Source: Gammaproteobacteria bacterium (lineage in GTDB: Bacteria; Pseudomonadota; Gammaproteobacteria; Steroidobacterales; Steroidobacteraceae). From it: a stretch of 64,000 nucleotides of DNA. Made by a program: the position numbers and the translations under genes. Under the pieces are notes generated by a model, which was not told where the DNA came from, did not search any database, and saw only the letters and a list, made by a program, of their open reading frames with translations. Position 1 is the stretch's first letter. Each line of letters opens with the position of its first letter. The stretch covers positions 14,390 through 78,389 of the forward strand of contig JANYLH010000044.1 of the NCBI GenBank assembly GCA_025357915.1, read 5' to 3'. Positions 39,453-53,272 of the stretch are shown in pieces.

Positions 39453-41861
39453 TTGCTGACCGAGCGCGTCTCGATCGCAGTGATCGGCGCCGGCCCGGCC
39501 GGCCTTTCGGCCGCGGCCCACGCCGCCGACCTTGGCATCCCGCACCTGCTGCTCGAGGCGAGTCCGGGTCACGCCAACACCATCCGTAAATACCAGAAGG
39601 GCAAGCACGTCATGGCCGAGCCAGGGGCGCTGCCGCTGCGCAGCCCCCTGCCGTTTGCGGCCGCGGTCCGTGAGGCCGTGCTCGAGGGCTGGGACGCCGG
39701 ACTCGCGGCGCATCGCGTCAATGTCCGCTACGGCGCCGAGGCGGTCGCCATCAGCGGCTCGCGCCCGCAATTCCAGATCGCGTTGAAGGATGGCAGCGTG
39801 GTCCACGCCGAGTGCGTCGTGCTTGCAATCGGCGTGCAGGGAAATCCGCGCAAGTTGGGCGTGTCCGGCGAAGACCTGGCTTGCGTGCAATACCAGCTCG
39901 ACGATGCCGACGCCTATCGCGACGAGGCCATCGTCGTCGTCGGCGCCGGCGATGCCGCGATCGAGAACGCGCTGGCGCTGTCGAAGCGTAACCGCGTCTG
40001 CCTGGTGAACCGTGCCGCCGAGTTCTCGCGCGCCAAGGAAGGCAACCTGAGCGCGGTGCTCAAGGCAATCGAAGCCGGCACGCTCAGCTGCTTCTTCAAG
40101 AGCTCCTGTGCGCGCATCGAGGCCAGTGCCGGCGCGCAGCGAGGTTATCGCCTGACGCTCGACACCGATACCGGCGAGGCCAGCGTCGCGTGCGACCGGA
40201 TCATCGCCCGGCTCGGGGCCATCCCGCCGCGGCAATTTCTCGAGGCCTGCGGTGTCGGGTTCCCGGGGCCGCAGCCGACCGCGCTGCCTATCCTGTCCGA
40301 CCAGTACGAGTCGAGCGTGCCCGGGCTGTACGTGGTCGGTGCGCTCGCTGGCTATCCGCTGATCAAGCAGGCGATGAACCAGGGCTATGAGGCGGTCGAG
40401 TACAGCCGCGGGCGCGCTGTGGAGCCGGCCGACGAGCCGATCCTGCGCGAGCGGTTCGCACCGCTCCCCTTCGGCCTGACGGTCGCCGGCACGCTGGCGT
40501 TGATCCGCGAGCGCGTGCCGCTGTTCGCGGAGGTGAACCCGTTGCTGCTGCGCGAGCTGGTGCTGGGCAGCGAAGTCCACGCACCCGCGTCCGGCACCGT
40601 GCTGTTCCGCAAGAACGACTACACCAATTCGTTTTACACGATCATAAATGGCGGCGTCGACATGGAACTCGGCGACGAGGGCCAGCAACGCATAGCACTG
40701 CGCCAGGGTCAGTTCTTCGGCGAGGGGAGTCTGCTGTCCGGCCGTCGGCGCGCCGGCAGCGCGCTGGCCGGCGCCGGCTGCGTGGTGCTGGAGACGCCGC
40801 GCCGCGAGATCCTCAAGCTCATGAGCTCGGTCGACGGGGTCCGGCGCGTGGTCGACGAGCTGTTCATCATCCGCGCGATCCAGTCAAGCTTCGCGACCGA
40901 CGCCTCCTTCGACGAACTGCGCACGGTCGCCGCCGGCGCGCGGCTCAACCGCTACCGGCCGGGCGAGATGCTGTTCGAGGAAGGCGCGGTCGCCGACTGC
41001 CTGCACCTGGTGCGGAGCGGTTCGGTCGCGGTATTGCGCCAGCTCGGCGGGCGCGACGTCGTTACGTCGTATGTTGCCGCGGGCAACTATGTCGGCGAGA
41101 TCGGCCTGCTGGGCCGCACGCGGCGTACGGCGAGCGTGCGGGCGAACGTCGCCACCGAGACCGTGAGCATTGACGCCGCCGCCTTCGACCAGCTGCTGGC
41201 GCGCAACGCGGCGCTGCGCGAGCGCATCCAGGACACCATCCGTGAGCGGCTGGCCGCGAACGCGCGCATGCAGGGCCAGACCCAGGCGGGCGACCTGATC
41301 TCGTTTCTGATGCAGCAGGGCCTGGGGGAGGCCACCGACGTGCTGCTGATCAACGAGTCGCTGTGCGTGGGCTGCGACAACTGCGAGAAGGCCTGCGCCG
41401 AAACGCACGGCGGCACCTCGCGCCTCGACCGCGGGGCCGGGCCGAGCTTCGCGCAGGTGCACGTACCCACCTCCTGCCGGCACTGCGAGGACCCGCACTG
41501 CATGACCGATTGCCCGCCGGACGCGATCCGGCGCGCACCGGACGGCGAGGTGTACATCCGCGACAACTGCATCGGCTGCGGCAACTGCGAGCGCAACTGC
41601 CCGTACGGCGTGATCCAGATGGCCGCCGCGACGCCTGCCAAGCCCCCGCTGCTGGCGTGGCTGCTGTTGGGAAGCGGTCCCGGGCCCGGCGGCGTGGCCG
41701 GCGCGCCCGCCGACCCGCAAGCCGCGAAGAAGGCCGTGAAATGCGACATGTGCAAGGACCTGGGCGGCGGCCCCGCCTGCGTCCGCGCCTGCCCGACGGG
41801 CGCCGCGATCCGCATCAGTCCCGAGCGCTTCGTCGAGCTCGCCCATGGCAGCGATGTCTAG
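39453..41861 (+). CDS. fusion protein: FAD/NAD(P)-binding oxidoreductase + two cyclic-nucleotide-binding domains + four-cluster [4Fe-4S] ferredoxin (DmsB/NrfC-like)
   Basis: VIGAGPAGLSAA (FAD), VVVGAGDAAIENA (NAD(P)) and GLYVVGALAG are present. The cNMP motifs are FFGEGSLL... and YVGEIGLLGRTRRTASVRA. The Cys motifs are CVGCDNCEKAC, CRHCEDPHCMTDCP, CIGCGNCERNCP and CDMCKDLGGGPACVRACP. The start (TTG 39453) is inferred and uncertain. Confidence 0.8.
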   Translation: MLTERVSIAVIGAGPAGLSAAAHAADLGIPHLLLEASPGHANTIRKYQKGKHVMAEPGALPLRSPLPFAAAVREAVLEGWDAGLAAHRVNVRYGAEAVAISGSRPQFQIALKDGSVVHAECVVLAIGVQGNPRKLGVSGEDLACVQYQLDDADAYRDEAIVVVGAGDAAIENALALSKRNRVCLVNRAAEFSRAKEGNLSAVLKAIEAGTLSCFFKSSCARIEASAGAQRGYRLTLDTDTGEASVACDRIIARLGAIPPRQFLEACGVGFPGPQPTALPILSDQYESSVPGLYVVGALAGYPLIKQAMNQGYEAVEYSRGRAVEPADEPILRERFAPLPFGLTVAGTLALIRERVPLFAEVNPLLLRELVLGSEVHAPASGTVLFRKNDYTNSFYTIINGGVDMELGDEGQQRIALRQGQFFGEGSLLSGRRRAGSALAGAGCVVLETPRREILKLMSSVDGVRRVVDELFIIRAIQSSFATDASFDELRTVAAGARLNRYRPGEMLFEEGAVADCLHLVRSGSVAVLRQLGGRDVVTSYVAAGNYVGEIGLLGRTRRTASVRANVATETVSIDAAAFDQLLARNAALRERIQDTIRERLAANARMQGQTQAGDLISFLMQQGLGEATDVLLINESLCVGCDNCEKACAETHGGTSRLDRGAGPSFAQVHVPTSCRHCEDPHCMTDCPPDAIRRAPDGEVYIRDNCIGCGNCERNCPYGVIQMAAATPAKPPLLAWLLLGSGPGPGGVAGAPADPQAAKKAVKCDMCKDLGGGPACVRACPTGAAIRISPERFVELAHGSDV

Positions 41862-42744
41862 CATTCACGAGTCGGCCCTCGCCTACCGCGGGCGCCGCTA
41901 CCTGTGGGTCGCGCTGGCACTGACGGCAGCCTCCGTGCTCGCCTACGCGTGGCACTCGCCAGCCGTACCGCCGAACGGCGGCACCTGGCTGGGCTATACG
42001 CTGGGCACGGTCGCCGCGCTACTGATCCTGTTGCTGCTGGCGCTCGGCATCCGCAAGCGCAGCTACCACTCGACGCTCGGCACCGTCAGCGGCTGGGTAT
42101 CGGCGCACGTATACCTGGGGCTGGCACTGGTCGTGGTGGCCACGCTTCACACCGGGTTTCACTTCGGCCGCAACGTGCACACGCTCGCCTACGTGCTGAT
42201 GTGTCTGGTCATCGCACTGGGCATCGTCGGCGTCGTGCTGTACGCGCGCTACCCGGCCCGCATGAGCGTCAACCGCCAGGGGCGCGCACGCGCGCAACTC
42301 GTGGAAGAGGTCAACGATCTCAATGCCCGCGCACTGCGCGTCGCGCAACCGCTGCCCGCGGAATTCCTGGCGGCGGTGCGCAGCGCGCGCGACCGGCTGG
42401 TGCTCGGCGGCAACGCCTGGACGCTGCTCACCGGCCGCGACCGCTCCCGCGTCGTGCTGCCAGGGAGCGACGGCGCCAGCGCGCCGCTCGCCAACCCCTT
42501 TCAGGCGACGCTGATCGCCTGGCTTGGCGACCGCCTCGCGCGCTGCCAGGACGGCGAGGTGGCGCCGCGCATTCAGAGCCTGCTCACGCTCATCAGCGCC
42601 CAGCGGGTCGCAATCGAGCGCCTCAAACGCGACCTCGCCTTCCAGGCGCGGCTCGACGCCTGGCTGTATTTGCACGTGCCGTTGTCCTTCGCGTTGCTGG
42701 CCGCGCTCCTGGCGCATGTCGTCAGCGTGTTCCTGTACTGGTAA
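41845..42744 (+). CDS. integral membrane protein with two HX13H motifs (putative di-haem b, ferric-reductase/NOX-like transmembrane electron carrier)
   Basis: About five hydrophobic helices by eye. His88/His102 sit in helix 3 and His277/His291 in the last helix, each pair separated by exactly 13 residues. It overlaps the upstream gene by 17 nt. Confidence 0.7.
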   Translation: MAAMSSIHESALAYRGRRYLWVALALTAASVLAYAWHSPAVPPNGGTWLGYTLGTVAALLILLLLALGIRKRSYHSTLGTVSGWVSAHVYLGLALVVVATLHTGFHFGRNVHTLAYVLMCLVIALGIVGVVLYARYPARMSVNRQGRARAQLVEEVNDLNARALRVAQPLPAEFLAAVRSARDRLVLGGNAWTLLTGRDRSRVVLPGSDGASAPLANPFQATLIAWLGDRLARCQDGEVAPRIQSLLTLISAQRVAIERLKRDLAFQARLDAWLYLHVPLSFALLAALLAHVVSVFLYW

Positions 42745-42754
42745 GGCCTGCGCC

Positions 42755-44464
42755 GTGCGTACCCTGATCCGCTTCGTCAGCCGCGCCACAGGCGGTGCCG
42801 TCGAGACCAGCGAGCGGCTCTTCGATGGCGAGGCGCTCACTCTCGGCCGCGCCACCGACCAGGTGCTGCAGTTCAAGGACGGACGTGTGGCATTCCAGCA
42901 CGCGCGGATCTTCCGGCGGGGCAGCCGCGTGCTGCTCGCCTGCCGCGCGCCGGCGACCGTCATCGTCAACGACGCATTGGTGCGCGAGGCGGAGTTGTCG
43001 CTGGGCGACGTACTGCGTCTGGGCGCAAACGTACTCACGCTCATCGAGCCGCCCGCCGGCGCCGATCTCGCGCTGACCTTCGAGCTCGATCCGGCTGCGT
43101 CCGAGGCGGAACTCGCGACGGTCAATGCACCGCTCCTGCTCTCGGGCGGGCGGCTCGGCAAGCGCGGCTGGTCCTGGCTGCTGTTTCTCACACTGCTGGG
43201 CGCGTTCCTCGTGCTGCCGGTATTGGTGTTGCCTGCGAAGTCCACCCGCGAGGCGCTGCGCGCGAGCTGGCTGCCGAGCGATCACGCCTATTCGCCCGGC
43301 GCGCTGCACTCGGTGCACCAGACGATCGGCGGTCGCTGCGAGGCGTGCCACCAGCAGGCCTTCGTCCGGGTACGCAACGAGGCGTGCCTCGCCTGCCACG
43401 CGACGGAACTGCATCGGCACGTCGACGCGGGCAGCCCACGGGCGCGTGCAGTGGAGCAGATGCGCTGCCTTGCCTGCCATTCCGGCCACGAACCCGCGCC
43501 GTTGCTGCGCAGCGGCTCCGGCGGCTGCGTCGCTTGCCACGCTGACGTCTCGCTCGCCGGCGACCCGCACCGCCTCGGTGCCGTCAGCGACTTCGGTCGC
43601 GCGCACCCGGAGTTCCGCGTCACCTTGCTGCGCCCGGACGCCGCCGGCATCGCTGGCGCGAGTGAGCGGGCGCGCCTCGATGCGCCCGCGCTGCGCGAGC
43701 ACTCGCACCTCAAGTTCTCGCACGCGCAGCACCTCGATCCGCGGGGAGTCAAGACGCTGGACGGGCGCCGGGTGCTCGGCTGTGCCGATTGCCACGTGCC
43801 CGAGCCCGGCGGCGGGCGCATGTTGCCGATCCGCATGGCGGCGCACTGCCAGAGCTGCCACCGGCTCGACTTTGACCCGGCGTTCCCGGACCGCCAGCTG
43901 CCGCACGGCGATGTGACCGGGGCGGTGAACACGCTGTTCGAATACTACAGCGCACGCTACCTGGAGGGCTGGCCGGATCCGAACGCGCGAGCGTCCGCCG
44001 GGCGCTTCGCGGCGACGCCTGGACCCGCGCTGGCACCGGCCGAGCGTGAGCGCCGGCTCGGCCTCGCACGCACGCGCGCCGCAGTGGTCGCGCGTGACCT
44101 CATCGAGCGGCGCGCCTGCGTCGTGTGTCATGAAGTACGCGTGGTCGCGGACGCGGCGCTGCGCTGGCAGGTCACGGCAGTACGGCTCACGCACGCCTGG
44201 TTCCCGGCTGCGCGGTTCGATCACGCGCAGCACACCACTACGCTGACGCCGTGCTCCTCGTGCCACGACGCGGCACATTCCACACAGTCCGCGGACGTGC
44301 TCATGCCACGCATCGCGACCTGCCGTCGCTGTCACGCGGGGAGCGGCGGCGCGGCGCCGCCCGCCGGCAAGGTGGCGACCGGATGTCCGGCCTGCCATGC
44401 GTTCCACGACCCGCGGCGCGCGCCCTGGGTTCCGGTGGCGCAGCCAACGGATCCGGGACGGTGA
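42755..44464 (+). CDS. FHA domain - single TM - decahaem c-type cytochrome (cytochrome c3/c7-like)
   Basis: An N-terminal FHA-like fold (LTLGRATDQVLQFKDGRVAFQHARI...VIVNDALV...LSLGDVLRLGANVL) is followed by a TM (WSWLLFLTLLGAFLVLPVLVLPA). Ten CXXCH motifs follow: CEACH, CLACH x2, CVACH, CADCH, CQSCH, CVVCH, CSSCH, CRRCH and CPACH. GTG start at 42755. Confidence 0.85.
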   Translation: MRTLIRFVSRATGGAVETSERLFDGEALTLGRATDQVLQFKDGRVAFQHARIFRRGSRVLLACRAPATVIVNDALVREAELSLGDVLRLGANVLTLIEPPAGADLALTFELDPAASEAELATVNAPLLLSGGRLGKRGWSWLLFLTLLGAFLVLPVLVLPAKSTREALRASWLPSDHAYSPGALHSVHQTIGGRCEACHQQAFVRVRNEACLACHATELHRHVDAGSPRARAVEQMRCLACHSGHEPAPLLRSGSGGCVACHADVSLAGDPHRLGAVSDFGRAHPEFRVTLLRPDAAGIAGASERARLDAPALREHSHLKFSHAQHLDPRGVKTLDGRRVLGCADCHVPEPGGGRMLPIRMAAHCQSCHRLDFDPAFPDRQLPHGDVTGAVNTLFEYYSARYLEGWPDPNARASAGRFAATPGPALAPAERERRLGLARTRAAVVARDLIERRACVVCHEVRVVADAALRWQVTAVRLTHAWFPAARFDHAQHTTTLTPCSSCHDAAHSTQSADVLMPRIATCRRCHAGSGGAAPPAGKVATGCPACHAFHDPRRAPWVPVAQPTDPGR

Positions 44465-46434
44465 AGCGCGCATCGGCCTGTCTCGCTCCACTGGCGGCGC
44501 TGACGTTGTCGGCCTGTGGCGGTGGGGGCGAAGTCGCTTCGGGTGTGCCCACAAGCCCGCCGCCCCCGGGCCTGGTCTGTACCGGCCAGTGCGCGAATGC
44601 CCTCACGCTGCTGTCGCAGGCGGACGTGGAGCGCACGATCGCGCAGGCGGTCGCCGAGGCGCAGGCCCGCGGCGCGCACGCCACCGTCGCGGTTGTCGAC
44701 CGCGTTGGCAACGTGCTCGGTGTGTTCCGCATGAATGGCGCGGCGAATACCGTCACGATCGGGTCGGGACTGGCCACAGGCGGTCTCGAGAACGTCACGA
44801 TTGTCCCTGACACAGTCGCGGCCATCGCCAAGGCCGTGACGGCGGCATACCTGTCGAGCGAAGGCAATGCGTTCTCGACCCGCACAGCGAGTCAGATCGT
44901 GCAGGAGCATTTCAATCCGGGCGTAGCGCTGGCGCCGGGCGGTCCGCTGTTCGGCGTGCAGTTCAGCCAGCTGCCCTGCTCCGATCTGATGGCGCGGGCG
45001 GGAGCCGCGCCCGCCCCTGGCCCGCAGCGCTCGCCGCTGGGCCTCGCGGCGGATCCGGGTGGCCTGCCGCTCTACAAGGCCGGCACGCCGGTGGGCGGCG
45101 TGGGCGTAATCGCCGATGGCCGCTACGGGCTGGATCGCAACGTGCTCGACACGGACGTGGATCTGGACGAAACGATCGCGCTCGCCGCGACCTTTGGGCT
45201 CGCGGCGCCCGACGATCGCCGCGCCGACCGGATCACGGCTGATGGCAGGACGCTGCGTTTCAGCGATGCGACGGTGGCGACGCTCGCCAGTGCGCCCGCT
45301 GCTGCGCCGTCATTCGCGTCCCTGGACGGCGTCGCGGGTCACCTGCTTGCAGTGCCCGGCTACGGCGCAGCGACGACGCGCGCGGGCCTCGCGTATGGCA
45401 CGAGCGCCTCGGGCATCCGCTCCGATGCCAGCGACTACCCGGGACTCGACGCGCAGGTGCTGGTGGACGCGAGCGATGCGCCCCGCTATCCGCCGCGCGC
45501 CGGCAGCGAAACCTCGGGTGCACTGAGTGCGACCGAAGTGCGCGAGATCCTGCGCGCGGCACTCGGCGTGGCGAACCGCACCCGCGCCCAGATCCGCCTG
45601 CCGCTTGGCTCGCAGGCGCGCGTCACCGTCAGCGTCGTCGACAGTCAGGGTGTAGTCCTCGGAATAGCCGCTATGCGCGACGCACCGGTATTCGGCGTCG
45701 ACGTCTCGCTGCAAAAGGCGCGCTCGAGCGCGTTCACGAGCTCGGCGGCCGCGGCCGCGGCACTCGCGGCTGCGCCCGATGCGGTCTATCTCGACGGTGG
45801 ACTGAGTGTGCTCGCGCGGGTGCCACTGGCCAGCTACGTGACGGCGACGCGCGCATTCCTGGGGTTGCCAGCAGCGCTCGGCGACGGCGGCGTCGCCTTC
45901 AGCGCGCGCGCGCTGGGCAACATGGCGCGACCGTTCTATCCCGACGGCGTCGACGGCACCCATGCCGGACCCTGGTCCAGGCCGGCCGCGGCGTGGAGCC
46001 CGTTCAGCACCGGCTTACAGCTGGATCTGGTTTATAACGCCCTGGTGCAGCATGTCGCCTTCGTGCTTGGCGCGGCACCCGACGTGGGCTTCAGTTGCAC
46101 CGGTGTCAGCGGCTTTGACACCGGCTTTGCTCCCGCCGCGCCCATCCCGGCGCTCGCCAATGGCCTGCAGATCTTTCCGGGCGGCGTGCCGATCTATCGG
46201 GACCACACGCTGGTCGGCGCGATCGGCGTGTCAGGCGATGGCGTCGACCAGGATGACATGATCGGCTTCCTGGGCGTCGATAGCGCCGCGCAACGCCTCG
46301 GCGGCTTCGGCAATGCGCCGCCCGACCTGCGCAGCGACACGCTGGTGCCGCGCGGCGCGCGCTTGCGCTATGTCGGCTGCCCGGTGGCACCGTTCCTCGA
46401 CTCGTCGACGCAGGACGAGTGCAGTGGCCGCTAG
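44461..46434 (+). CDS. lipoprotein with two GlcG/HbpS-like (DUF336, haem-binding/degrading fold) domains
   Basis: A lipobox (LTLSAC). Domain 1 reads LSQADVERTIAQAVAEAQARGAHATVAVVDRVGNVLGVF...GGLPLYKAGTPVGGVGV. Domain 2 reads VTVSVVDSQGVVLGIAAM...GGVPIYRDHTLVGAIGVSGDGVDQDDMI. GTGA overlap with the upstream stop. Confidence 0.7.
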   Translation: MKRASACLAPLAALTLSACGGGGEVASGVPTSPPPPGLVCTGQCANALTLLSQADVERTIAQAVAEAQARGAHATVAVVDRVGNVLGVFRMNGAANTVTIGSGLATGGLENVTIVPDTVAAIAKAVTAAYLSSEGNAFSTRTASQIVQEHFNPGVALAPGGPLFGVQFSQLPCSDLMARAGAAPAPGPQRSPLGLAADPGGLPLYKAGTPVGGVGVIADGRYGLDRNVLDTDVDLDETIALAATFGLAAPDDRRADRITADGRTLRFSDATVATLASAPAAAPSFASLDGVAGHLLAVPGYGAATTRAGLAYGTSASGIRSDASDYPGLDAQVLVDASDAPRYPPRAGSETSGALSATEVREILRAALGVANRTRAQIRLPLGSQARVTVSVVDSQGVVLGIAAMRDAPVFGVDVSLQKARSSAFTSSAAAAAALAAAPDAVYLDGGLSVLARVPLASYVTATRAFLGLPAALGDGGVAFSARALGNMARPFYPDGVDGTHAGPWSRPAAAWSPFSTGLQLDLVYNALVQHVAFVLGAAPDVGFSCTGVSGFDTGFAPAAPIPALANGLQIFPGGVPIYRDHTLVGAIGVSGDGVDQDDMIGFLGVDSAAQRLGGFGNAPPDLRSDTLVPRGARLRYVGCPVAPFLDSSTQDECSGR

Positions 46435-48226
46435 CGCAACTCGCGCCTGCGCGTGCGCGCTGGCCCTCGCCGGTGCGGGTCTTGCCACCGGCGTGGTCCG
46501 CGCCGGAGACGGGAGCACGACCGCGCCCTGCCCGCCCGAGTCCCCGGTCGCGGCCGAACGCAAGGCACCGGCGGTACCCGAGCTGCCCGGCTTCGCGCCC
46601 ACGCCGTGCAATCCGGCCGCGCTACCCCCACCGCGCGCGGACCAGCCGGGGACGCTCGCCGGGCTCCCGGATCGCTGGCGCATGGTCTCGACGCTGGGGT
46701 ACCCCGAGCGGCTCCACGACCCCTACCACGGCAACAACTGGTTGAAGGGCGATCGCCCGGCGTTCGGTGCTGACTGGTTCGTCAACCTCGCGGCGGTCGC
46801 GGATACCGTCGTCGAGCCCAGGCGCTTCCCGCTGCCAGTCGGCAACGTCGTCACCGAACGCCCGGGGAGCCTCGACGCCTACGGGCACGGCGCGAGCCAG
46901 CTCTATGCCCAGACCCTCGCCTTCGAGGCCGTCCTCTATCAGGGCGATACCGTATTCAAGCCGCCGGAGTGGGAGTTTCGCCTCACGCCCGTCTTCAGCG
47001 TCAATCGTGTCGAGGTAGGCGAGCGCGGCCTGGTGAACGCCGCCGCAGGCGCGCCGCTGTCGCGCACCGACACGGCGCTCGGGCTGCAGGCGGCGTTCGT
47101 CGATCGCCATCTGCGCAATGTTTCCGCGCACTACGATTTCGACAGCCTGCGCGTCGGCATCCAGCCGGTGACCGCGGACTTCCGCGGCTTCCTCTACACG
47201 GATGCGGCGCTAGGCGTGCGGCTGTCTGGCAACCGGGCCAACAATCGCTACCAGTACAACTTGGGTTGGTTCCGTCGCCTGGAGAAGGACACCAATTCCG
47301 GACTCAACGACGTGTTCGCTCGTGGCCTCGCCTCACTGCGCCATGACAGCGTAGTGCTCGCCAACCTGTACGCGCAGGACACGCCACTGCCCGGTTTCAC
47401 CTCGCAACTGGTGGTGGCGTACAACCGCAACCGGGAAGGCGGCGAACTACGCTACGACGGCAACGGCGCGCTGCAGCGTCCGGCGCAAATCGGTGATGGC
47501 CGCGGCCGCGACTACCAGGTGACCTACCTCGGCGTCAACGGCGATGGCCATGTCGGCGTGCTCAACGCGACCATTGCCGGCTACTTCGTATTCGGGCACG
47601 AATCGCGCGGCACCTTCGCCGCCGCCGCAGACCAGGTGCGCGCCTTCTTCGCAGCCGCCGAAGTGTCGCGCGACTGGGACTGGCTACGGGTCCGCGCTTC
47701 GATCGCGCTGCAGAGCGCCGATCACGATCCATTCGACCGGCGTGCCACCGGGTTCGATGCGATTGTAGAGAACCCGTTGTTCGCCGGCGCCGATACCAGT
47801 TTCTGGATCCGTCAGCCGGTGCCACTGATTGCCGGCGGCGGCGTATCACTGTCGGGTCGCAACGGCCTGCTCAGCTCGTTGCGCTCCTCGAAGGAATTCG
47901 GCCAGTCCAACTTCACCAACCCGGGACTGCAGCTGGTTGGCGTCGGCGCCGACGCGGACCTCACGCCGACGCTGCGGGTCAGCGCGAACGCCAACGACCT
48001 GCGCTTTGGCGACACGGCGGTGCTCGAGGTGGCGCGCGCGCAGGCATCGATCCCAAGACGCATCGGGCTCGACCTCTCGCTCGCGCTCAGCTGGCGTCCC
48101 CTCGCCACGCAGAACGTGGTCGCACGCCTGTCGGCCGCGAAGCTGCTGCCGGGCAGCGGCTGGAAAACGCTTTATGGCGGCGAGCAGGGCTATTCCATTC
48201 TCGGCAACCTGATACTGAGCTACTGA
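46424..48226 (+). CDS. putative outer-membrane beta-barrel protein (unassigned family)
   Basis: A signal peptide (ACACALALAGAGLATGVVRAGD). It contains abundant alternating aromatic/polar stretches such as YQYNLGWFRRLEKD, YQVTYLGVNGDGHVGVLNATIAGYFVFG and LDLSLALSWRPL. The C-terminus is aromatic (NLILSY). The GTG start at 46424 overlaps the upstream gene. Confidence 0.55.
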   Translation: MAASATRACACALALAGAGLATGVVRAGDGSTTAPCPPESPVAAERKAPAVPELPGFAPTPCNPAALPPPRADQPGTLAGLPDRWRMVSTLGYPERLHDPYHGNNWLKGDRPAFGADWFVNLAAVADTVVEPRRFPLPVGNVVTERPGSLDAYGHGASQLYAQTLAFEAVLYQGDTVFKPPEWEFRLTPVFSVNRVEVGERGLVNAAAGAPLSRTDTALGLQAAFVDRHLRNVSAHYDFDSLRVGIQPVTADFRGFLYTDAALGVRLSGNRANNRYQYNLGWFRRLEKDTNSGLNDVFARGLASLRHDSVVLANLYAQDTPLPGFTSQLVVAYNRNREGGELRYDGNGALQRPAQIGDGRGRDYQVTYLGVNGDGHVGVLNATIAGYFVFGHESRGTFAAAADQVRAFFAAAEVSRDWDWLRVRASIALQSADHDPFDRRATGFDAIVENPLFAGADTSFWIRQPVPLIAGGGVSLSGRNGLLSSLRSSKEFGQSNFTNPGLQLVGVGADADLTPTLRVSANANDLRFGDTAVLEVARAQASIPRRIGLDLSLALSWRPLATQNVVARLSAAKLLPGSGWKTLYGGEQGYSILGNLILSY

Positions 48227-48233
48227 CAGAGCG

Positions 48234-51200
48234 ATGCGCCACTACACCATCCTGCTGGCCTTCACGACGCTTGCCTGCCTGGCGCGCGGCGCGCCTGCGC
48301 AGGCTGCTGCCGACGAGGAAACGCCCGTCGAGCGCGCCTGGGTGACGGCGCCGTCCGCGCCGGCAAGCCAGACGCAATCGGCCGCGGATGCCAAGAGCGA
48401 GGGCTGCATCTCCTGTCACGCAGCCAGCGACGCTGCGAGCATGCACGCGGCGAAGGCGGTCGTGCTCGGCTGCACCGACTGCCACGGCGGCGATGCGTCA
48501 GTGCGCTGGCGCGGCGCGGCCTCAAAGAGTGATCCGCAGTATTCTGCGAGCCGCGATCGCGCCCACGTGCTGCCGCGCTTTCCGGCGAGCTGGCACTACC
48601 CGGACAGCGCCAACCCGGAGCGCAGCTACACGCTCCTGAACCGCGAGGCCCCGGAGTTTATCCGCTTTAAAAACCCTGGCGACTACCGGATCGCGCGCGA
48701 GGCCTGCGGCGCCTGCCATCTGCGCATCATCGAGGCCGCGGAACGGAGCCTCATGTCCACGAACGCGATGTTCTGGGGCGGCGCCGCGTACAACAACGGC
48801 ATCCTGCCGTTCAAGAACTACCTGCTCGGCGAGGGTTATACGCGCGAGGGCAAGTCGACGGTTATCGAAGGGCCACCCCTCACGCCCGAGGAAGCGTTGC
48901 AGCATGGCATCCTGCCCCGCCTCTATCCCCTACCGCGCTTCGAGACCATCCGGCCCGGCGATATCTTCCGGGTTTTCGAGGACGGCGGCCGCAACATCTC
49001 GAACCTGTTCCCCGAGACGGCCCTGCCGAACGTGTCGGGCGAACTGGAGCGGCTTGAGGAACCGGGCCGGCCCGATATCCGCCAGTCCAATCGCGGCCCC
49101 GGCACGGGCGCGCGCATCGCGGTGCCGGTGCTCAACATCCACAAGACGCGCCTCAACGACCCGCTTGCATGGTTCCTCGGCACCAACGACCAGCCCGGTG
49201 ATTACCGCTCCTCGGGCTGCAGCGCCTGCCACGTGGTTTACGCCAACGACCGCGACCCGGCGCACTCCGGGCCCTACGCGCGCTACGGGCACGAGGGCAC
49301 CTCGCAGCAGCGCGACCCGGTGATTCCGCGCGACCGGCCCGGCCACGCCCTGCAGCACGCGTTCACGCGCAGCATCCCTTCCAGCCAGTGCATGGTCTGC
49401 CACATGCACCAGCCGAACATGTTCATGAACACGTTCTACGGCTACACGATGTGGGACTACGAATCCGACGCGCCCTCAATGTGGCCCGGGCAACAGCGCT
49501 ACCCCACCGCCGATGAGACGCGGGCCGTGCTCGACCGCAATCCCGAGGGCGCCGCACCGCGTGGCAACTGGGCGGATCCCGGGTTCCTCAGCCGGGTCTG
49601 GGAACTCAACCCCGGGCTCAAGGATACGCAGTTCGCCGACTACCATGGCCACGGCTGGAATTTTCGCGCTGTCTTCAAGCGCGATCGCCATGGGCACCTG
49701 CAGGACAGCGCGGGCGCGATCGTCGCCAACGACGACCCGCAAAAGTGGGCCAAGGTCGTGCACATGGCTTCGGTGCATGTCGATGTCGGCATGCACTGCG
49801 TCGACTGTCACTACGGCCAGGACGCGCACGGCACCGGCCACATCCATGCCGAGGTCGCGCAGGCAGTCGAGATTGACTGCAAGGACTGCCACGGCACCGT
49901 GCGAGCCTACCCGACACTGCGCACTTCCGGTCCCGCAGCCGGCCCGAACGGCACCGACCTCGCGACGATTCGAAACCCCGACGGCCGTCTGCGCTTCGAG
50001 TGGCGCGACGGAAAACTGCTGCAACGCTCCGCCGTGGATCCCGCGAGGGAATGGGTGGTCTCGCTGGTCAAGGATTCGGTGACTCCAGGAAATCCGCGTT
50101 ACAACCCGCGCGCCGCGCGCGCCAAGCTCATGGCGAGGGATCCGCTGGGGCAGAAGTGGGGCACCGACGTCGCCTGGCCGCAACTCGCGCACAGCGACGA
50201 CAACATGGAGTGCTACTCCTGCCACACGTCGTGGACCACGAGCTGCGGGGGCTGCCACTTGCCGATTGAGGCCAACTGGAAGAGCGAGAAACACCGCTTC
50301 GAGGGCGGCACGAGCCGCAATTACGCCAGCTACAACCCGCAGGTGGCGCGCGACGACATGTTCCTGCTCGGTCGCCGCGGGCCGGTCGAGAACGGCAAGA
50401 TCGCCCCGGTGCGCTCGTCCTCGGCGCTGGTGCTGTCCTCGACCAACGCGAATCGCGAGCACATCTACGTGCAGCAGCCACCGATTGCAGCCTCGGGCTT
50501 TAGCTCACAGGCGATGAACCCGCACTACCCGCACACCGAGCGCAAGACCGAGACCAAGACCTGCAGTGACTGCCACCTGGCGGCCACGCGTGACAACAAC
50601 GCGATCATGGCGCAGACCCTGGGTCAGGGTACGCAGTACATCAACTTCGTCGGGCTCAACGCCTACCTCGGCACCGAGCGCGCGGTCGCCGCGGTGCAGG
50701 TAACCGAGTGGGAGGAGCCGCAGGCGGTCATCGGCAGCTACCTGCACCGCTATGCGTATCCCGATTACTACGCGGCACACCTGGCGCGCGGCCGGCAGCT
50801 GACGAACGCGGCCACGCACGCCTCCGGGCCCGCCAGCTGCGTGCAGCAACGCGGCGAATACCTGTACGCCTCCGAGGGCCATGGCGGATTGCGCGTCTAT
50901 GACATTGCCAGCATCGCCAACAAGGGAGTCAGCGCCCGGATTCTCAGCGCGCCGTTCTCGCCGTTGGGCCACGATACGCACGTGACCACGCGTGATGCCT
51001 CCTGCGTGGTGCTCGCGACCACGCAACCGGTGCAGCCCTCGCGCAACCAAGGTGCGCTGATGCGCGAGGCCAACCTCGAGCAGCCCTTCCTCGACGTCTA
51101 TCGTTACGCGTTCATCACTGACCGGGTCGAAGGGCTGATCCTGGTGGACATCGACACGCTCATGGACGGCAACTTCCGCAACAACCAGCTGCGGCGGGCG

Positions 51201-51974
51201 CTCACCTGGAACCCCGGCGGAGTGCTGCGCGGCGCGCGACACCTCGCCATCGGCGGCCGCTACCTCTACATCGTTGCCGACGCGGGCCTGATCGTTGCCG
51301 ACTTCCAGGATCCGCTCGCCCCGCGCGTACTCGCAACCGTCCCGCTGGACGACGCGCGCGCCGCGATGCTGCAGTTCCGCTATCTGTTTGTCACCGACCG
51401 CAGCGGGCTCGCGGTCATCGACGTCACGCATCCCGAGGGGCCACGCCTGGTGCCCGGCGCGCGCGTGCCGCTCGCCGACGCGCACAAGCTGTTCGTGTCG
51501 CGCACCTACGCCTGGGTGGCCAATGGTCGCGAGGGCCTGGCGATCATCGATGTCGAGAAACCCGAGGCGCCACGCCTGTTCCGGAACTTCAACGCCGACG
51601 GCGCGCTCGGCGATTCCCGCGACGTGGTGCTCGCGGCGACCAATGCCTCGTCATTCGCCTACGTGGCCGACGGCGCGGGCGGACTCAAGGTGATCCAGAC
51701 GATCGCCCCGGACACGCAGCCCGATTTCTACGGCTTCGCGCCCGAACCCCGGCCGCAGTTGATCGCGAGCTACCGCACGGCGGCCCCGGCCCTCGCCCTG
51801 TCGCGGCCGCTTGAGCGCGACCGCGCGGTGGACGAGAGCGGCGGGCAGGTTGCAGTATTCGGCCGCCGCGGCTCACGACCGTTTACTCTGCAGGAGATGC
51901 AACGCATGTACCTCGACGCAGCGGGTAACCCGTGGTTCGTCAGCGATTCCACGGCCCCTGGAGCGCCGCGATGA
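48234..51974 (+). CDS. 1246-aa secreted decahaem c-type cytochrome fused to a C-terminal LVIVD-repeat beta-propeller
   Basis: It has a signal peptide. Ten CXXCH motifs are spread over about 800 aa: CISCH, CTDCH, CGACH, CSACH, CMVCH, CVDCH, CKDCH, CYSCH, CGGCH and CSDCH. About six LVIVD-type repeats follow: GGLRVYDIASI, EGLILVDIDTL, AGLIVADFQDPLAP, SGLAVIDVTHPEGP, EGLAIIDVEKPEAP and GGLKVIQTIAP. Confidence 0.85.
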   Translation: MRHYTILLAFTTLACLARGAPAQAAADEETPVERAWVTAPSAPASQTQSAADAKSEGCISCHAASDAASMHAAKAVVLGCTDCHGGDASVRWRGAASKSDPQYSASRDRAHVLPRFPASWHYPDSANPERSYTLLNREAPEFIRFKNPGDYRIAREACGACHLRIIEAAERSLMSTNAMFWGGAAYNNGILPFKNYLLGEGYTREGKSTVIEGPPLTPEEALQHGILPRLYPLPRFETIRPGDIFRVFEDGGRNISNLFPETALPNVSGELERLEEPGRPDIRQSNRGPGTGARIAVPVLNIHKTRLNDPLAWFLGTNDQPGDYRSSGCSACHVVYANDRDPAHSGPYARYGHEGTSQQRDPVIPRDRPGHALQHAFTRSIPSSQCMVCHMHQPNMFMNTFYGYTMWDYESDAPSMWPGQQRYPTADETRAVLDRNPEGAAPRGNWADPGFLSRVWELNPGLKDTQFADYHGHGWNFRAVFKRDRHGHLQDSAGAIVANDDPQKWAKVVHMASVHVDVGMHCVDCHYGQDAHGTGHIHAEVAQAVEIDCKDCHGTVRAYPTLRTSGPAAGPNGTDLATIRNPDGRLRFEWRDGKLLQRSAVDPAREWVVSLVKDSVTPGNPRYNPRAARAKLMARDPLGQKWGTDVAWPQLAHSDDNMECYSCHTSWTTSCGGCHLPIEANWKSEKHRFEGGTSRNYASYNPQVARDDMFLLGRRGPVENGKIAPVRSSSALVLSSTNANREHIYVQQPPIAASGFSSQAMNPHYPHTERKTETKTCSDCHLAATRDNNAIMAQTLGQGTQYINFVGLNAYLGTERAVAAVQVTEWEEPQAVIGSYLHRYAYPDYYAAHLARGRQLTNAATHASGPASCVQQRGEYLYASEGHGGLRVYDIASIANKGVSARILSAPFSPLGHDTHVTTRDASCVVLATTQPVQPSRNQGALMREANLEQPFLDVYRYAFITDRVEGLILVDIDTLMDGNFRNNQLRRALTWNPGGVLRGARHLAIGGRYLYIVADAGLIVADFQDPLAPRVLATVPLDDARAAMLQFRYLFVTDRSGLAVIDVTHPEGPRLVPGARVPLADAHKLFVSRTYAWVANGREGLAIIDVEKPEAPRLFRNFNADGALGDSRDVVLAATNASSFAYVADGAGGLKVIQTIAPDTQPDFYGFAPEPRPQLIASYRTAAPALALSRPLERDRAVDESGGQVAVFGRRGSRPFTLQEMQRMYLDAAGNPWFVSDSTAPGAPR

Positions 51975-53272
51975 GGTTCGCACTGTTTCCAGCCTGTGCC
52001 CGCGCGTTGGTCCTGGCCGCGTTGCTGGGCGCCGCCGCCGCGGCGGCGAACCCGGGGGCGCCTGCCGACGCCGTGCACCAGGGCGTCGCCAGTTGCGCCA
52101 GCGGCATCTGCCATGGTTCGGCGAAACCCCGCTCGGCCACACCGGTGCAGCAGAACGAATACGTCACCTGGCAACATTTCGATCCGCACGCCGGCGCTTT
52201 CCATGCGCTGAGCGAACCGCGTGGCCGCGAGATCGCGCGACGGCTGGGCATTGCCGATGTCACCGCCGCGCCCCAGTGCCTCGGCTGCCACGCCGATGCC
52301 GCGCCCCCGGCGCAACGCGGCCCGCGCTTCCAGCTCGACGACGGCATCGGCTGCGAGAGCTGTCATGGTGCCTCTGATCGCTGGATCGCGAGCCACGCCG
52401 ACACGCCGCGCGTCACTCATGCGGACAACCTCCGCGCGGGGCTGCGTCCCCTCGAGCAGCCCGTCGTACGGGCCAGCGTGTGCCTCGACTGCCACGTCGG
52501 CTCGGTAGGCAATCTGGCCACTCACGCGATGATGGCGGCCGGCCACCCGCGGCTCAGCTTCGAGCTGGACACCTACACCGAATTGTGGCGGACGAGCGGC
52601 GGCCGCGAGCACTACGTGCGCGACCAGGACTACCGGCAGCGCAAGGGCCTTCCCCCAGCCACCGACGTGTGGATCGCAGGGTTGCTGGCGCAGGCGCGGC
52701 GCCAGCTGGCGATCCTCCGCGAGGATCCGGCGCCGGGCCTGCTGCCGGAGTTCGCGCTTTTCAACTGTTACTCCTGCCACCGCACCATGGGGCTCTCGCG
52801 TTGGGCCGCGCGGGAATCGAGCCCGGCCGGATCGGCCGGCGCCCTGCGCTTTGACGACAGCGCGTTGCGGCTCATCGCCGCGGTACTCGGGGCTGCCGGA
52901 TCCGCCGATGCCACACTGCTGCCCGAAATGGTGCGGGAACTCCAGGCGGCGCCGGGCAGGGATTGGGCGGCCGTGCAGCGCGCCGCAGCGGCACTAGATG
53001 CCGCTCTGGCCCCGTTGGCCGTCAGGCCGCCGGCACTCTCGGCGCCGCAGGCGCGAGTGCTGCTCGAGCAACTGTCCGCGGCGGTGCAGCGGGGCGAGTA
53101 TCGCGACTATGCCGGCGCAGAACAGGTGGCCATGGGGGCTGTGGTGCTGCTCGAGGCGAGCGGCCAGCCGACCGGATCAGCTGCGGTCGAAGCCCTGTTC
53201 GCGAGCCTGGCCGACGACGAGCGCTTCGACGCGGCGCGATTCCGGAGCCTGCTCGAGCACGCCACGAAATAG
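51971..53272 (+). CDS. secreted multihaem c-type cytochrome (cytochrome c554-like family)
   Basis: It has a signal peptide and four CXXCH motifs (CLGCH, CESCH, CLDCH, CYSCH). One additional CX4CH motif (CASGICH) is present. ATGA overlap with the upstream gene. Confidence 0.8.
   Translation: MRFALFPACARALVLAALLGAAAAAANPGAPADAVHQGVASCASGICHGSAKPRSATPVQQNEYVTWQHFDPHAGAFHALSEPRGREIARRLGIADVTAAPQCLGCHADAAPPAQRGPRFQLDDGIGCESCHGASDRWIASHADTPRVTHADNLRAGLRPLEQPVVRASVCLDCHVGSVGNLATHAMMAAGHPRLSFELDTYTELWRTSGGREHYVRDQDYRQRKGLPPATDVWIAGLLAQARRQLAILREDPAPGLLPEFALFNCYSCHRTMGLSRWAARESSPAGSAGALRFDDSALRLIAAVLGAAGSADATLLPEMVRELQAAPGRDWAAVQRAAAALDAALAPLAVRPPALSAPQARVLLEQLSAAVQRGEYRDYAGAEQVAMGAVVLLEASGQPTGSAAVEALFASLADDERFDAARFRSLLEHATK

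Follow-up and report, generated by a model that had tools for sequence, protein, structure and literature searches.

The window analysed here, a 64,000-nucleotide stretch of contig JANYLH010000044.1 (positions 14,390 to 78,389, assembly GCA_025357915.1) from a gammaproteobacterium of the family Steroidobacteraceae, contains a gene for a c-type cytochrome in which ten haem attachment sites are followed, on the same polypeptide, by an LVIVD beta-propeller. This decahaem-propeller protein represents a large, strongly conserved family whose gene keeps company with one for an AlgE-like outer-membrane barrel. We propose, with a probability of about one half, that it is the signature subunit of an envelope redox module, in which it would be docked on the periplasmic side of the outer membrane as the last piece of an electron-transfer chain.

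Ten haem sites and a propeller in one polypeptide

The reading frame opens with ATG and runs for 1246 codons, giving a product of about 135 kDa, with the boundaries (Table 1) that had been assigned by the initial annotation, an earlier reading of the same DNA made from its letters. That annotation counted ten CXXCH motifs, and exactly ten are present, at residues 58, 80, 158, 329, 386, 522, 549, 660, 671 and 777, so that the sites span residues 58 to 781; 2000 shuffles of the protein gave a mean of 0.013 motifs and a maximum of one. Together with a signal peptide and the retention of all ten sites in 146 relatives, this count identifies the protein as a multihaem c-type cytochrome. A motif scan found no CXXCK, CX3CH or CX4CH variant in it. 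The third site (window positions 48705-48719) is CXXCH in the proteobacterial clade of the family and CX4CH, for example CGTAGCH, in 84 of the 146 aligned relatives; at this one site a whole, more distant clade has changed its attachment motif.

Thirteen histidines outside the motifs are invariant or nearly so (H71, H111, H344, H371, H375, H392, H473, H510, H515, H532, H653, H767 and H849), a number sufficient to give each of the ten haems bis-His ligation. Judged from the alignment, all ten are predicted to be bis-His electron carriers, none of them catalytic. The haems had been described as sparse, and for that reason as closer to enzymes such as octahaem reductases than to compact electron carriers. 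The spacing is about 78 residues per haem over the haem region; it falls within the usual multihaem density of 60-70 +/- 30 residues per haem (PMC5566968) and resembles that of MtrC and OmcA, so spacing does not discriminate an enzyme from a carrier.

The likeness to octahaem reductases itself proved weak. A search of the PDB with the single sequence returned no match, and a search with a family profile returned only a local di-haem stretch of about 50 residues from TvNiR/NrfA, with a best E-value of about 1.5e-3. In that stretch haems 6 and 7 ("H..G..C.DCH ... C.DCH") align with the last two haems of these enzymes at E-values of 0.0015-0.2, but only the 50 or so residues align, and the protein lacks CXXCK or any other catalytic haem motif; membership in the NrfA/TvNiR family is therefore rejected. 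This match is the sole link to the reductases, to be set against the 13 conserved histidines available to ten haems. No known reductase signature reached threshold in the motif scan or in the Pfam, NCBIfam and PDB searches. The ExtM model (NF040943, a cytochrome of selenite/tellurite operons) gave 49.2 bits in one local stretch against a cut-off of 800, TIGR03508 (DmsE/MtrA-type) gave 14.5 bits against 192.2, and the NrfB-type model gave 12 bits against 184. Identities as ExtM, HmcA, DmsE or GSU2203 were all rejected, every score lying far below its NCBIfam cut-off.

The C-terminal third of the protein carries six LVIVD repeats of the signature Y-x-Y-h...G-L-x-h-h-D-h..P..P (h, hydrophobic), anchored at residues 884, 966, 1017, 1057, 1100 and 1149, in agreement with the six or so noted at first. 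The protein scores 54.1 bits against the Pfam LVIVD model (PF08309; cut-off 20.2), and 26 of 27 family members match it. An AlphaFold2 model, built without haems from the 146-sequence alignment over residues 26-1225, has a mean predicted local distance difference test score (pLDDT) of 84.8 and a predicted TM-score (pTM) of 0.89. The haem region is mostly helix and coil up to about residue 665, while some 27 beta-strands, with pLDDT above 90, lie between residues 809 and 1189. In the model, the list of strands fits a roughly seven-bladed propeller, with a seventh blade composed of two strands N-terminal and two strands C-terminal to the six LVIVD blades. Foldseek comparison of the full model with the PDB returned propellers only, namely AztD, the propeller of the cd1 nitrite reductase NirS, and WD40 or LRP domains, with an archaeal YVTN propeller (1l0q) at a target-normalised TM-score (TMt) of 0.52; no multihaem structure was among these matches.

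The conserved positions of the propeller blades hold Gly, Asp, Glu, Asn, Arg or Lys; none of the conserved alignment columns of the blades is a His, Cys or Met. Such a composition is more in keeping with a surface for binding or docking than with a copper, iron or haem centre. A tail beyond the last repeat, also noticed at first, extends over about residues 1160-1246 and includes the best-conserved 50-residue window of the whole protein (0.78), with R1195, R1197, G1203 and R1211 invariant and D1196, D1200, E1201, Q1205 and E1221 invariant or nearly so. The only low-confidence stretch of the model is a loop at residues 247-295; its sequence is conserved, and the loop is a candidate partner-binding segment that may fold only on a partner or cofactor.

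Table 1. Features of the decahaem-propeller gene and its neighbours, in window coordinates
Feature	Coordinates	Strand	Basis
Whole gene, decahaem c-type cytochrome with LVIVD beta-propeller	48234..51974	+	ORF (open reading frame) list, translation; 1246 aa (amino acids) plus stop
Sec signal peptide, aa 1-24, predicted cleavage AQA↓AADEE	48234..48305	+	Sequence reading
Haem region, ten CXXCH	48405..50576	+	Motif scan, shuffles
CXXCH codon starts, sites 1-5	48405, 48471, 48705, 49218, 49389	+	Motif scan
CXXCH codon starts, sites 6-10	49797, 49878, 50211, 50244, 50562	+	Motif scan
Loop aa 247-295, low pLDDT (about 40), conserved RVFE.GGR...EEPGRPD..SNRG.GT	48972..49118	+	pLDDT profile, column conservation
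Beta-rich subdomain between haem sites 9 and 10 (aa ~670-763)	50241..50522	+	DSSP of AlphaFold2 model
Beta-propeller (aa ~809-1189), six LVIVD blades (aa ~873-1160) and a seventh composite blade	50658..51800	+	Pfam, repeat register, model, Foldseek
Conserved C-terminal tail (RDRAVDESG.Q.AVFGR.G.RPF...EM)	51801..51971	+	Alignment columns
18-strand AlgE-like outer-membrane barrel gene, directly upstream	46424..48226	+	AlphaFold2, Foldseek, synteny
Lipoprotein with tandem HbpS-like (PF03928) domains	44461..46434	+	Pfam, 68 bits in 3 stretches; lipobox LTLSAC↓GGG
c554-like cytochrome, start overlaps stop of decahaem-propeller gene	51971..53272	+	Pfam, motif scan; present in 52/81 loci
Inner module: cNMP (cyclic nucleotide)-binding flavo-4Fe4S protein, dihaem-b-like membrane protein, FHA-anchored decahaem	39453..44464	+	Pfam, synteny

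A large, conserved and patchily distributed family

Relatives of the decahaem-propeller protein number more than 7900 among clusters formed at 90% identity. The top 120 are all about 1240 residues long, share 66-87% identity with it, and are named only "hypothetical" or "LVIVD repeat-containing". An exhaustive search of the 50% representatives gave 1322 matches at E <= 1e-30, and full-length relatives with the same haem-propeller architecture extend across phyla down to about 40% identity. With each species represented by a single genome, at least 596 carriers were counted in the Gamma-, Beta- and Alphaproteobacteria, with full-length homologues at 58-87% identity; between genomes of these three classes the protein is 59-68% identical. 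The distant clade is drawn from Acidobacteriota, Rokubacteria, Planctomycetota, Calditrichota, KSB1 and Wallbacteria. Distribution is patchy. In a sample of 394 high-quality genomes from across the phylum the gene occurs in nine, seven of them in one family, and in the genus to which the window belongs it occurs in six of 25 species genomes, that of the window included. Carrier isolates include Tsuneonella rigui, Stagnimonas aquatica, Fontimonas sp., Hyphococcus sp., Pseudohalioglobus lutimaris and Kineobactrum salinum, most of which we take to be aerobic heterotrophs not known for mineral respiration.

Two family members depart from the common form. In one species of the same genus (G018:C5:285934-289594) the homologue is split across separate frames, corresponding to residues 16-91 and 100-1238, which may reflect a frameshift or an assembly error. 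In P0134, a 1648-residue protein of the representative library with 28 CXXCH motifs, the match to the decahaem-propeller protein begins at residue 729, which places about 18 extra haems on the N-terminal side, away from the propeller.

A conserved cluster that includes an outer-membrane barrel

The gene starts 7 nt after the stop codon of the barrel gene, and its own stop codon overlaps the start of the downstream cytochrome gene (ATGA), which places it inside a tightly packed operon. Conservation of this arrangement was counted over 81 loci from other genomes, many of the absences being contig ends. A barrel gene, with a product of about 600 residues, lies directly upstream in 78 of the 81; the remaining three loci open on the decahaem-propeller gene itself or no more than a few hundred bases away from it, leaving upstream DNA too short to judge. 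The AlphaFold2 model of the barrel (pLDDT 87.7) has about 18 long strands, and its C-terminus bears a conserved aromatic residue. Foldseek ranks AlgE first (E 7.6e-19, TMt 0.67), with OprD/Occ channels next, and MtrB is not among the 50 best matches listed. No Pfam family, the alginate-export family included, matched the barrel sequence.

The HbpS-like lipoprotein gene is present in 64 loci, and the triad of lipoprotein, barrel and decahaem-propeller genes is kept in acidobacterial, Wallbacteria and planctomycete loci. Genes of the inner module recur at similar rates: 60 of 81 loci for the FHA-decahaem, which has a single membrane helix, 56 for the flavo-iron-sulfur protein, and 54 for the membrane protein. 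By its Pfam matches the flavo-iron-sulfur protein is a flavoprotein of the NAD(P)H type that also carries 4Fe-4S clusters and a pair of cNMP-binding domains, and the dihaem b protein of the membrane is NOX/FRD-like. Among the proteins of the cluster, the decahaem-propeller protein is the best conserved, at 58-82% identity across loci. The c554-like cytochrome has four CXXCH motifs and an N-terminal CASGICH site, which is CX4CH-like; its alanine-rich C-terminal half, about 170 residues, has no family match. BLASTP similarity between the decahaem-propeller protein and the other two cytochromes of the operon is limited to CXXCH motifs, and we rejected the idea that its haem region is a duplicate of either. 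The sequencing runs that match the window are DNA runs of sediment metagenomes only, with no RNA evidence among them.

Several loci show local variation. On the input side, those from distant phyla differ from the proteobacterial clusters: an Acidobacteriia metagenome-assembled genome (MAG; locus L088, 1-7472) encodes a NuoF-like (Complex1_51K) protein and a protein with Fer2, Fer4 and cNMP-binding domains, and both there and in a Planctomycetota MAG (L090, 1-7488) a flavoprotein with Pyr_redox_2 and Pyr_redox_dim domains adjoins the HbpS-like gene. ResB/CcsA genes for cytochrome maturation lie beside these in the planctomycete locus. In Tsuneonella rigui (L086, 5572-7187, minus strand), two DUF4331 reading frames stand between the HbpS-like and barrel genes; they overlap the start of the barrel gene and may be one gene split in two.

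Location: beneath or upon the outer membrane

Most family members have a signal peptide of the signal peptidase I (SPase-I) type, which in close homologues is followed almost at once by a conserved "(D/E)-x-x-PVER" start of the mature protein. A lipoprotein assignment for the decahaem-propeller protein was considered and rejected: the sequence TLAC at Cys15 fits the loose PROSITE lipobox, but this cysteine is not conserved in close relatives, and because a standard AQA↓A site also follows it the protein is treated as a substrate of SPase-I. For a folded haem protein of 135 kDa, export to the surface would require a type II system, and the secretin GspD scores above cut-off in only two of eight complete carrier genomes. 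MtrA needs a 26-strand barrel; one of 18 strands is too narrow to sheath a haem chain. The small number of lipoboxes, the narrow barrel and the scarcity of GspD among carriers together favour a periplasmic location, with the protein presumably docked against the outer membrane from within, over surface exposure, by a clear though far from overwhelming balance.

The initial annotation had instead pictured a surface-exposed protein whose propeller touches minerals or other extracellular acceptors, much as MtrC and OmcA end the Mtr conduit. We regard this as unlikely, though a good deal speaks for it. The gene adjoins that of an outer-membrane barrel, the haem density is like that of MtrC and OmcA, seven of 27 relatives have weak matches to PF22113 (MtrC/OmcA/MtrF domains II/IV), lipoboxes do occur in a minority of relatives, and the genome of the window, itself rich in cytochromes for electron transfer, encodes a type II secretin; LVIVD repeats, moreover, are reported to have been first described in predicted cell-surface proteins (PMC2447325). 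Most family members, however, lack a lipobox, the AlgE-like barrel is too narrow, unlike the 709-residue MtrB/PioB porin of the same genome, and GspD above cut-off is missing from six of the eight complete carrier genomes. The named carriers are, as far as we know their physiology, aerobic heterotrophs not known for mineral respiration. The idea of surface or mineral contact is weakened by these SPase-I signals, barrel dimensions, secretin counts and aerobic carriers, not refuted by them.

A proposed path for electrons

The chain feeding the decahaem-propeller protein appears to start at NAD(P)H and to be gated by cyclic nucleotides. In the scheme we favour, cytoplasmic NAD(P)H would supply electrons to the cNMP-gated flavo-iron-sulfur protein; these would be carried across the inner membrane by the NOX/FRD-like dihaem b protein and then be taken up by the membrane-anchored FHA-decahaem, possibly with the c554-like cytochrome as a link to the decahaem-propeller protein, whose own haem chain would end beside the LVIVD propeller and the conserved tail. 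Propeller, tail and conserved loop would dock the protein onto the AlgE-like barrel and the HbpS-like lipoprotein, and an acceptor passing through the barrel, or held at the barrel-lipoprotein complex, would be reduced by the chain. The c-type haems of the module sum to 10 + 10 + 5, about enough to span the periplasm. The N-terminal haem extension of P0134 points to the N-terminus as the entry for electrons and to the propeller end as their exit. Three haem-copper oxidase genes in the genome, together with the mostly aerobic and heterotrophic habit that we assume for the carriers, make dedicated anaerobic mineral respiration unlikely.

Outward flow is favoured by both the redox potential and the membrane potential; electron transfer from outside to NAD(P)+ runs against both. 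A chain running inward, with Fe(II), Mn(II) or some other donor outside the cell giving up electrons at the outer membrane, is very improbable in our estimate. Such a direction would fit the sediment metagenome from which the window derives, and a related cluster, PCC4, found in Zetaproteobacteria and Hyphomicrobium, has been modelled as an uptake route (PMC5566968). Here, however, the cytoplasmic partner is a flavoprotein of the NAD(P)H type with 4Fe-4S clusters, and the carriers are mostly heterotrophs.

Several observations weigh against the proposal of a periplasmic, docked end-piece. Among close relatives 16 of 119 have a lipobox-like pattern, and among distant ones 17 of 118 (about 15% in all). 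The genome of the window does have GspD above cut-off, making surface export possible in this organism, and an 18-strand barrel beside a cytochrome could work in a novel way. Conservation is also uniformly high over the 1246 residues, acidic and amide residues of the propeller loops included, a pattern that would also fit a catalytic or substrate-binding propeller.

That last pattern leads to another arrangement, a periplasmic enzyme with its active site in the propeller or at the junction between propeller and last haem, acting on a soluble substrate admitted through the AlgE-like channel. Cytochrome cd1 nitrite reductase, quinohaemoprotein dehydrogenases and hydrazine synthase provide parallels. 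Full-length conservation between proteobacterial classes is very high, conserved acidic, amide and basic residues occupy blades 1-3 and an insertion in blade 2, and a dedicated barrel of small pore adjoins the gene. The cd1 enzyme NirS, in which a c-type haem domain is likewise covalently joined to a propeller, is among the Foldseek matches. The similarity to cd1 is nevertheless that of propellers in general (TMt 0.36-0.40, about 10% identity), and the decahaem-propeller protein has ten haems against one or two, and blades of the LVIVD type. The propeller of cd1 nitrite reductase is eight-bladed and holds haem d1 by conserved His ligands, whereas the family alignment contains no conserved ligands for haem d1, PQQ or copper, and no cluster of conserved His, Cys or Met that might hold copper, iron or haem d1. 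No enzyme family threshold was reached, and the ten haems look, from the sequence, to be fully ligated. On balance an enzyme of this kind seems rather unlikely.

Relation to known systems

The closest published counterparts of the inner module are the putative porin-cytochrome clusters PCC4 (He et al. 2017, PMC5566968) and ptdABCDEFG (Elbon et al., bioRxiv 10.1101/2023.11.21.568154) and the NHC trio of Ferrigenium straubiae (bioRxiv 10.64898/2026.01.22.701106). As described, these have in common a protein that binds cNMP or carries Fe-S clusters, a membrane protein of five helices bearing two HX13H motifs, and a deca- or nonahaem cytochrome that is anchored in the membrane and includes an FHA domain, and a porin gene is present. 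Going by the published descriptions, the inner trio of the cluster in the window corresponds to PtdE/F/G and to the NHC trio. The remaining parts differ: PCC4 and ptd are described with 4-, 5- and 10-haem cytochromes, with a pentahaem NrfA-like protein that has a beta-sandwich, while the cluster described here has cytochromes of 10, 10 and 4(+1) haems. Neither a decahaem-LVIVD protein, nor an HbpS-like lipoprotein, nor a propeller is mentioned in the published descriptions of PCC4, ptd or NHC, and in two of the three papers the words "propeller" and "LVIVD" do not occur at all. Going by its description, with 4-, 5- and 10-haem cytochromes and no propeller, PCC4 matches only in the inner module and is probably not the same cluster. 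That the inner trio is combined with different end-pieces in ptd/PCC4 and in NHC supports the decahaem-propeller protein as a terminal module. The initial annotation had also suggested this terminal position, and here it is upheld by the modularity of the trio and by gene order at the outer-membrane end of the cluster; the contact with a surface or mineral that it attached to this role is unsupported.

MtrC, OmcA and UndA resemble the decahaem-propeller protein in having about ten haems within some 700-800 residues, interspersed beta domains and an adjacent barrel gene, and they too are taken as ends of export chains. The protein differs from them in lacking a lipobox, in its additional propeller, and in a partner barrel that is not of the MtrB/PioB type. 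The profile search of the PDB, examined at E-values up to 10, found no chain of MtrC, OmcA or UndA. The same genome offers a direct comparison, for it encodes a canonical MtrCAB-type operon on another contig (C85:20608-26769; locus L091:1609-7770), with an MtrC/OmcA-like decahaem cytochrome (PF22113 at 177.7 bits, plus OmcA-like_N), an MtrA-like decahaem cytochrome with three paired-CXXCH domains, and the MtrB/PioB porin (709 aa; PF11854 at 533.9 bits). The decahaem-propeller protein scores 11.8 bits on PF22113 against a cut-off of 30, and it has no lipoprotein signal, so it falls outside the MtrC/OmcA/MtrF family on both counts; for a conduit of the MtrAB, PioAB or MtoAB type, an adjacent PF11854-type barrel is likewise absent and TIGR03508 is below its cut-off. 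The low PF22113 score and the small AlgE-like neighbour together show that the module is not an Mtr-type conduit.

Elsewhere in this genome are further haem-rich loci. A PCC3-like cluster (C49:43807-52870, minus strand; L092) encodes a 283-residue protein with two HX13H motifs, cytochromes with 21 haems (533 aa) and 42 haems (1424 aa), and a large barrel-like protein of 819 residues that ends in ...YRIGF and has SPOR and TPR matches. Reading frames with 31 and 34 haem motifs lie at the ends of contigs C71 and C6; the 31-haem and 42-haem frames share the C-terminal sequence VSDAAFKH.

Two other comparisons concern the company kept by propellers and barrels. The uet undecahaem cluster of "Ca. 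Tenderia" (bioRxiv 10.1101/2022.05.06.490989) includes the NHL-repeat propeller proteins UetH and UetI. It is alike, by description only, in that propeller proteins are found with multihaem cytochromes and outer-membrane barrels; its propellers, however, are of the NHL type and on separate polypeptides, whereas the LVIVD propeller is fused to its cytochrome. The AlgE/AlgK pairs of polysaccharide export likewise combine an AlgE-type barrel with an outer-membrane lipoprotein gene, but the lipoprotein of the present cluster is HbpS-like rather than a TPR protein, and the cluster has no polysaccharide synthesis genes. In the literature searched, with most subscription journals outside its scope, we found no description of a multihaem-LVIVD fusion or of a barrel-lipoprotein-cytochrome triad.

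Implications

To our knowledge, multihaem electron conduits are known almost only from specialists that respire or oxidise metals. The family described here contrasts with the known conduits in being very large, strongly conserved, and found mainly in ordinary aerobic heterotrophs, and it joins parts not seen together before: ten haems with an LVIVD propeller, an AlgE-like barrel and an HbpS-like lipoprotein. One speculative extension, which we hold to be distinctly improbable, is that the module is an envelope-scale wiring of the NADPH-oxidase type, gated by second messengers and phosphorylation, that would convert NAD(P)H into single electrons at the outer membrane of aerobes, with the decahaem-propeller protein, barrel and lipoprotein as a new outer-membrane redox terminal. 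Its job might be, for example, regulated extracellular superoxide production, or the reduction of an external oxidant or metal chelate. Such activities are widely observed in heterotrophs, and we know of no enzyme to which they have been assigned. Several carriers are in culture, so the question is directly testable, and identifying the acceptor of the decahaem-propeller protein would add a new redox function to the bacterial envelope and give the LVIVD propeller its first functional context.

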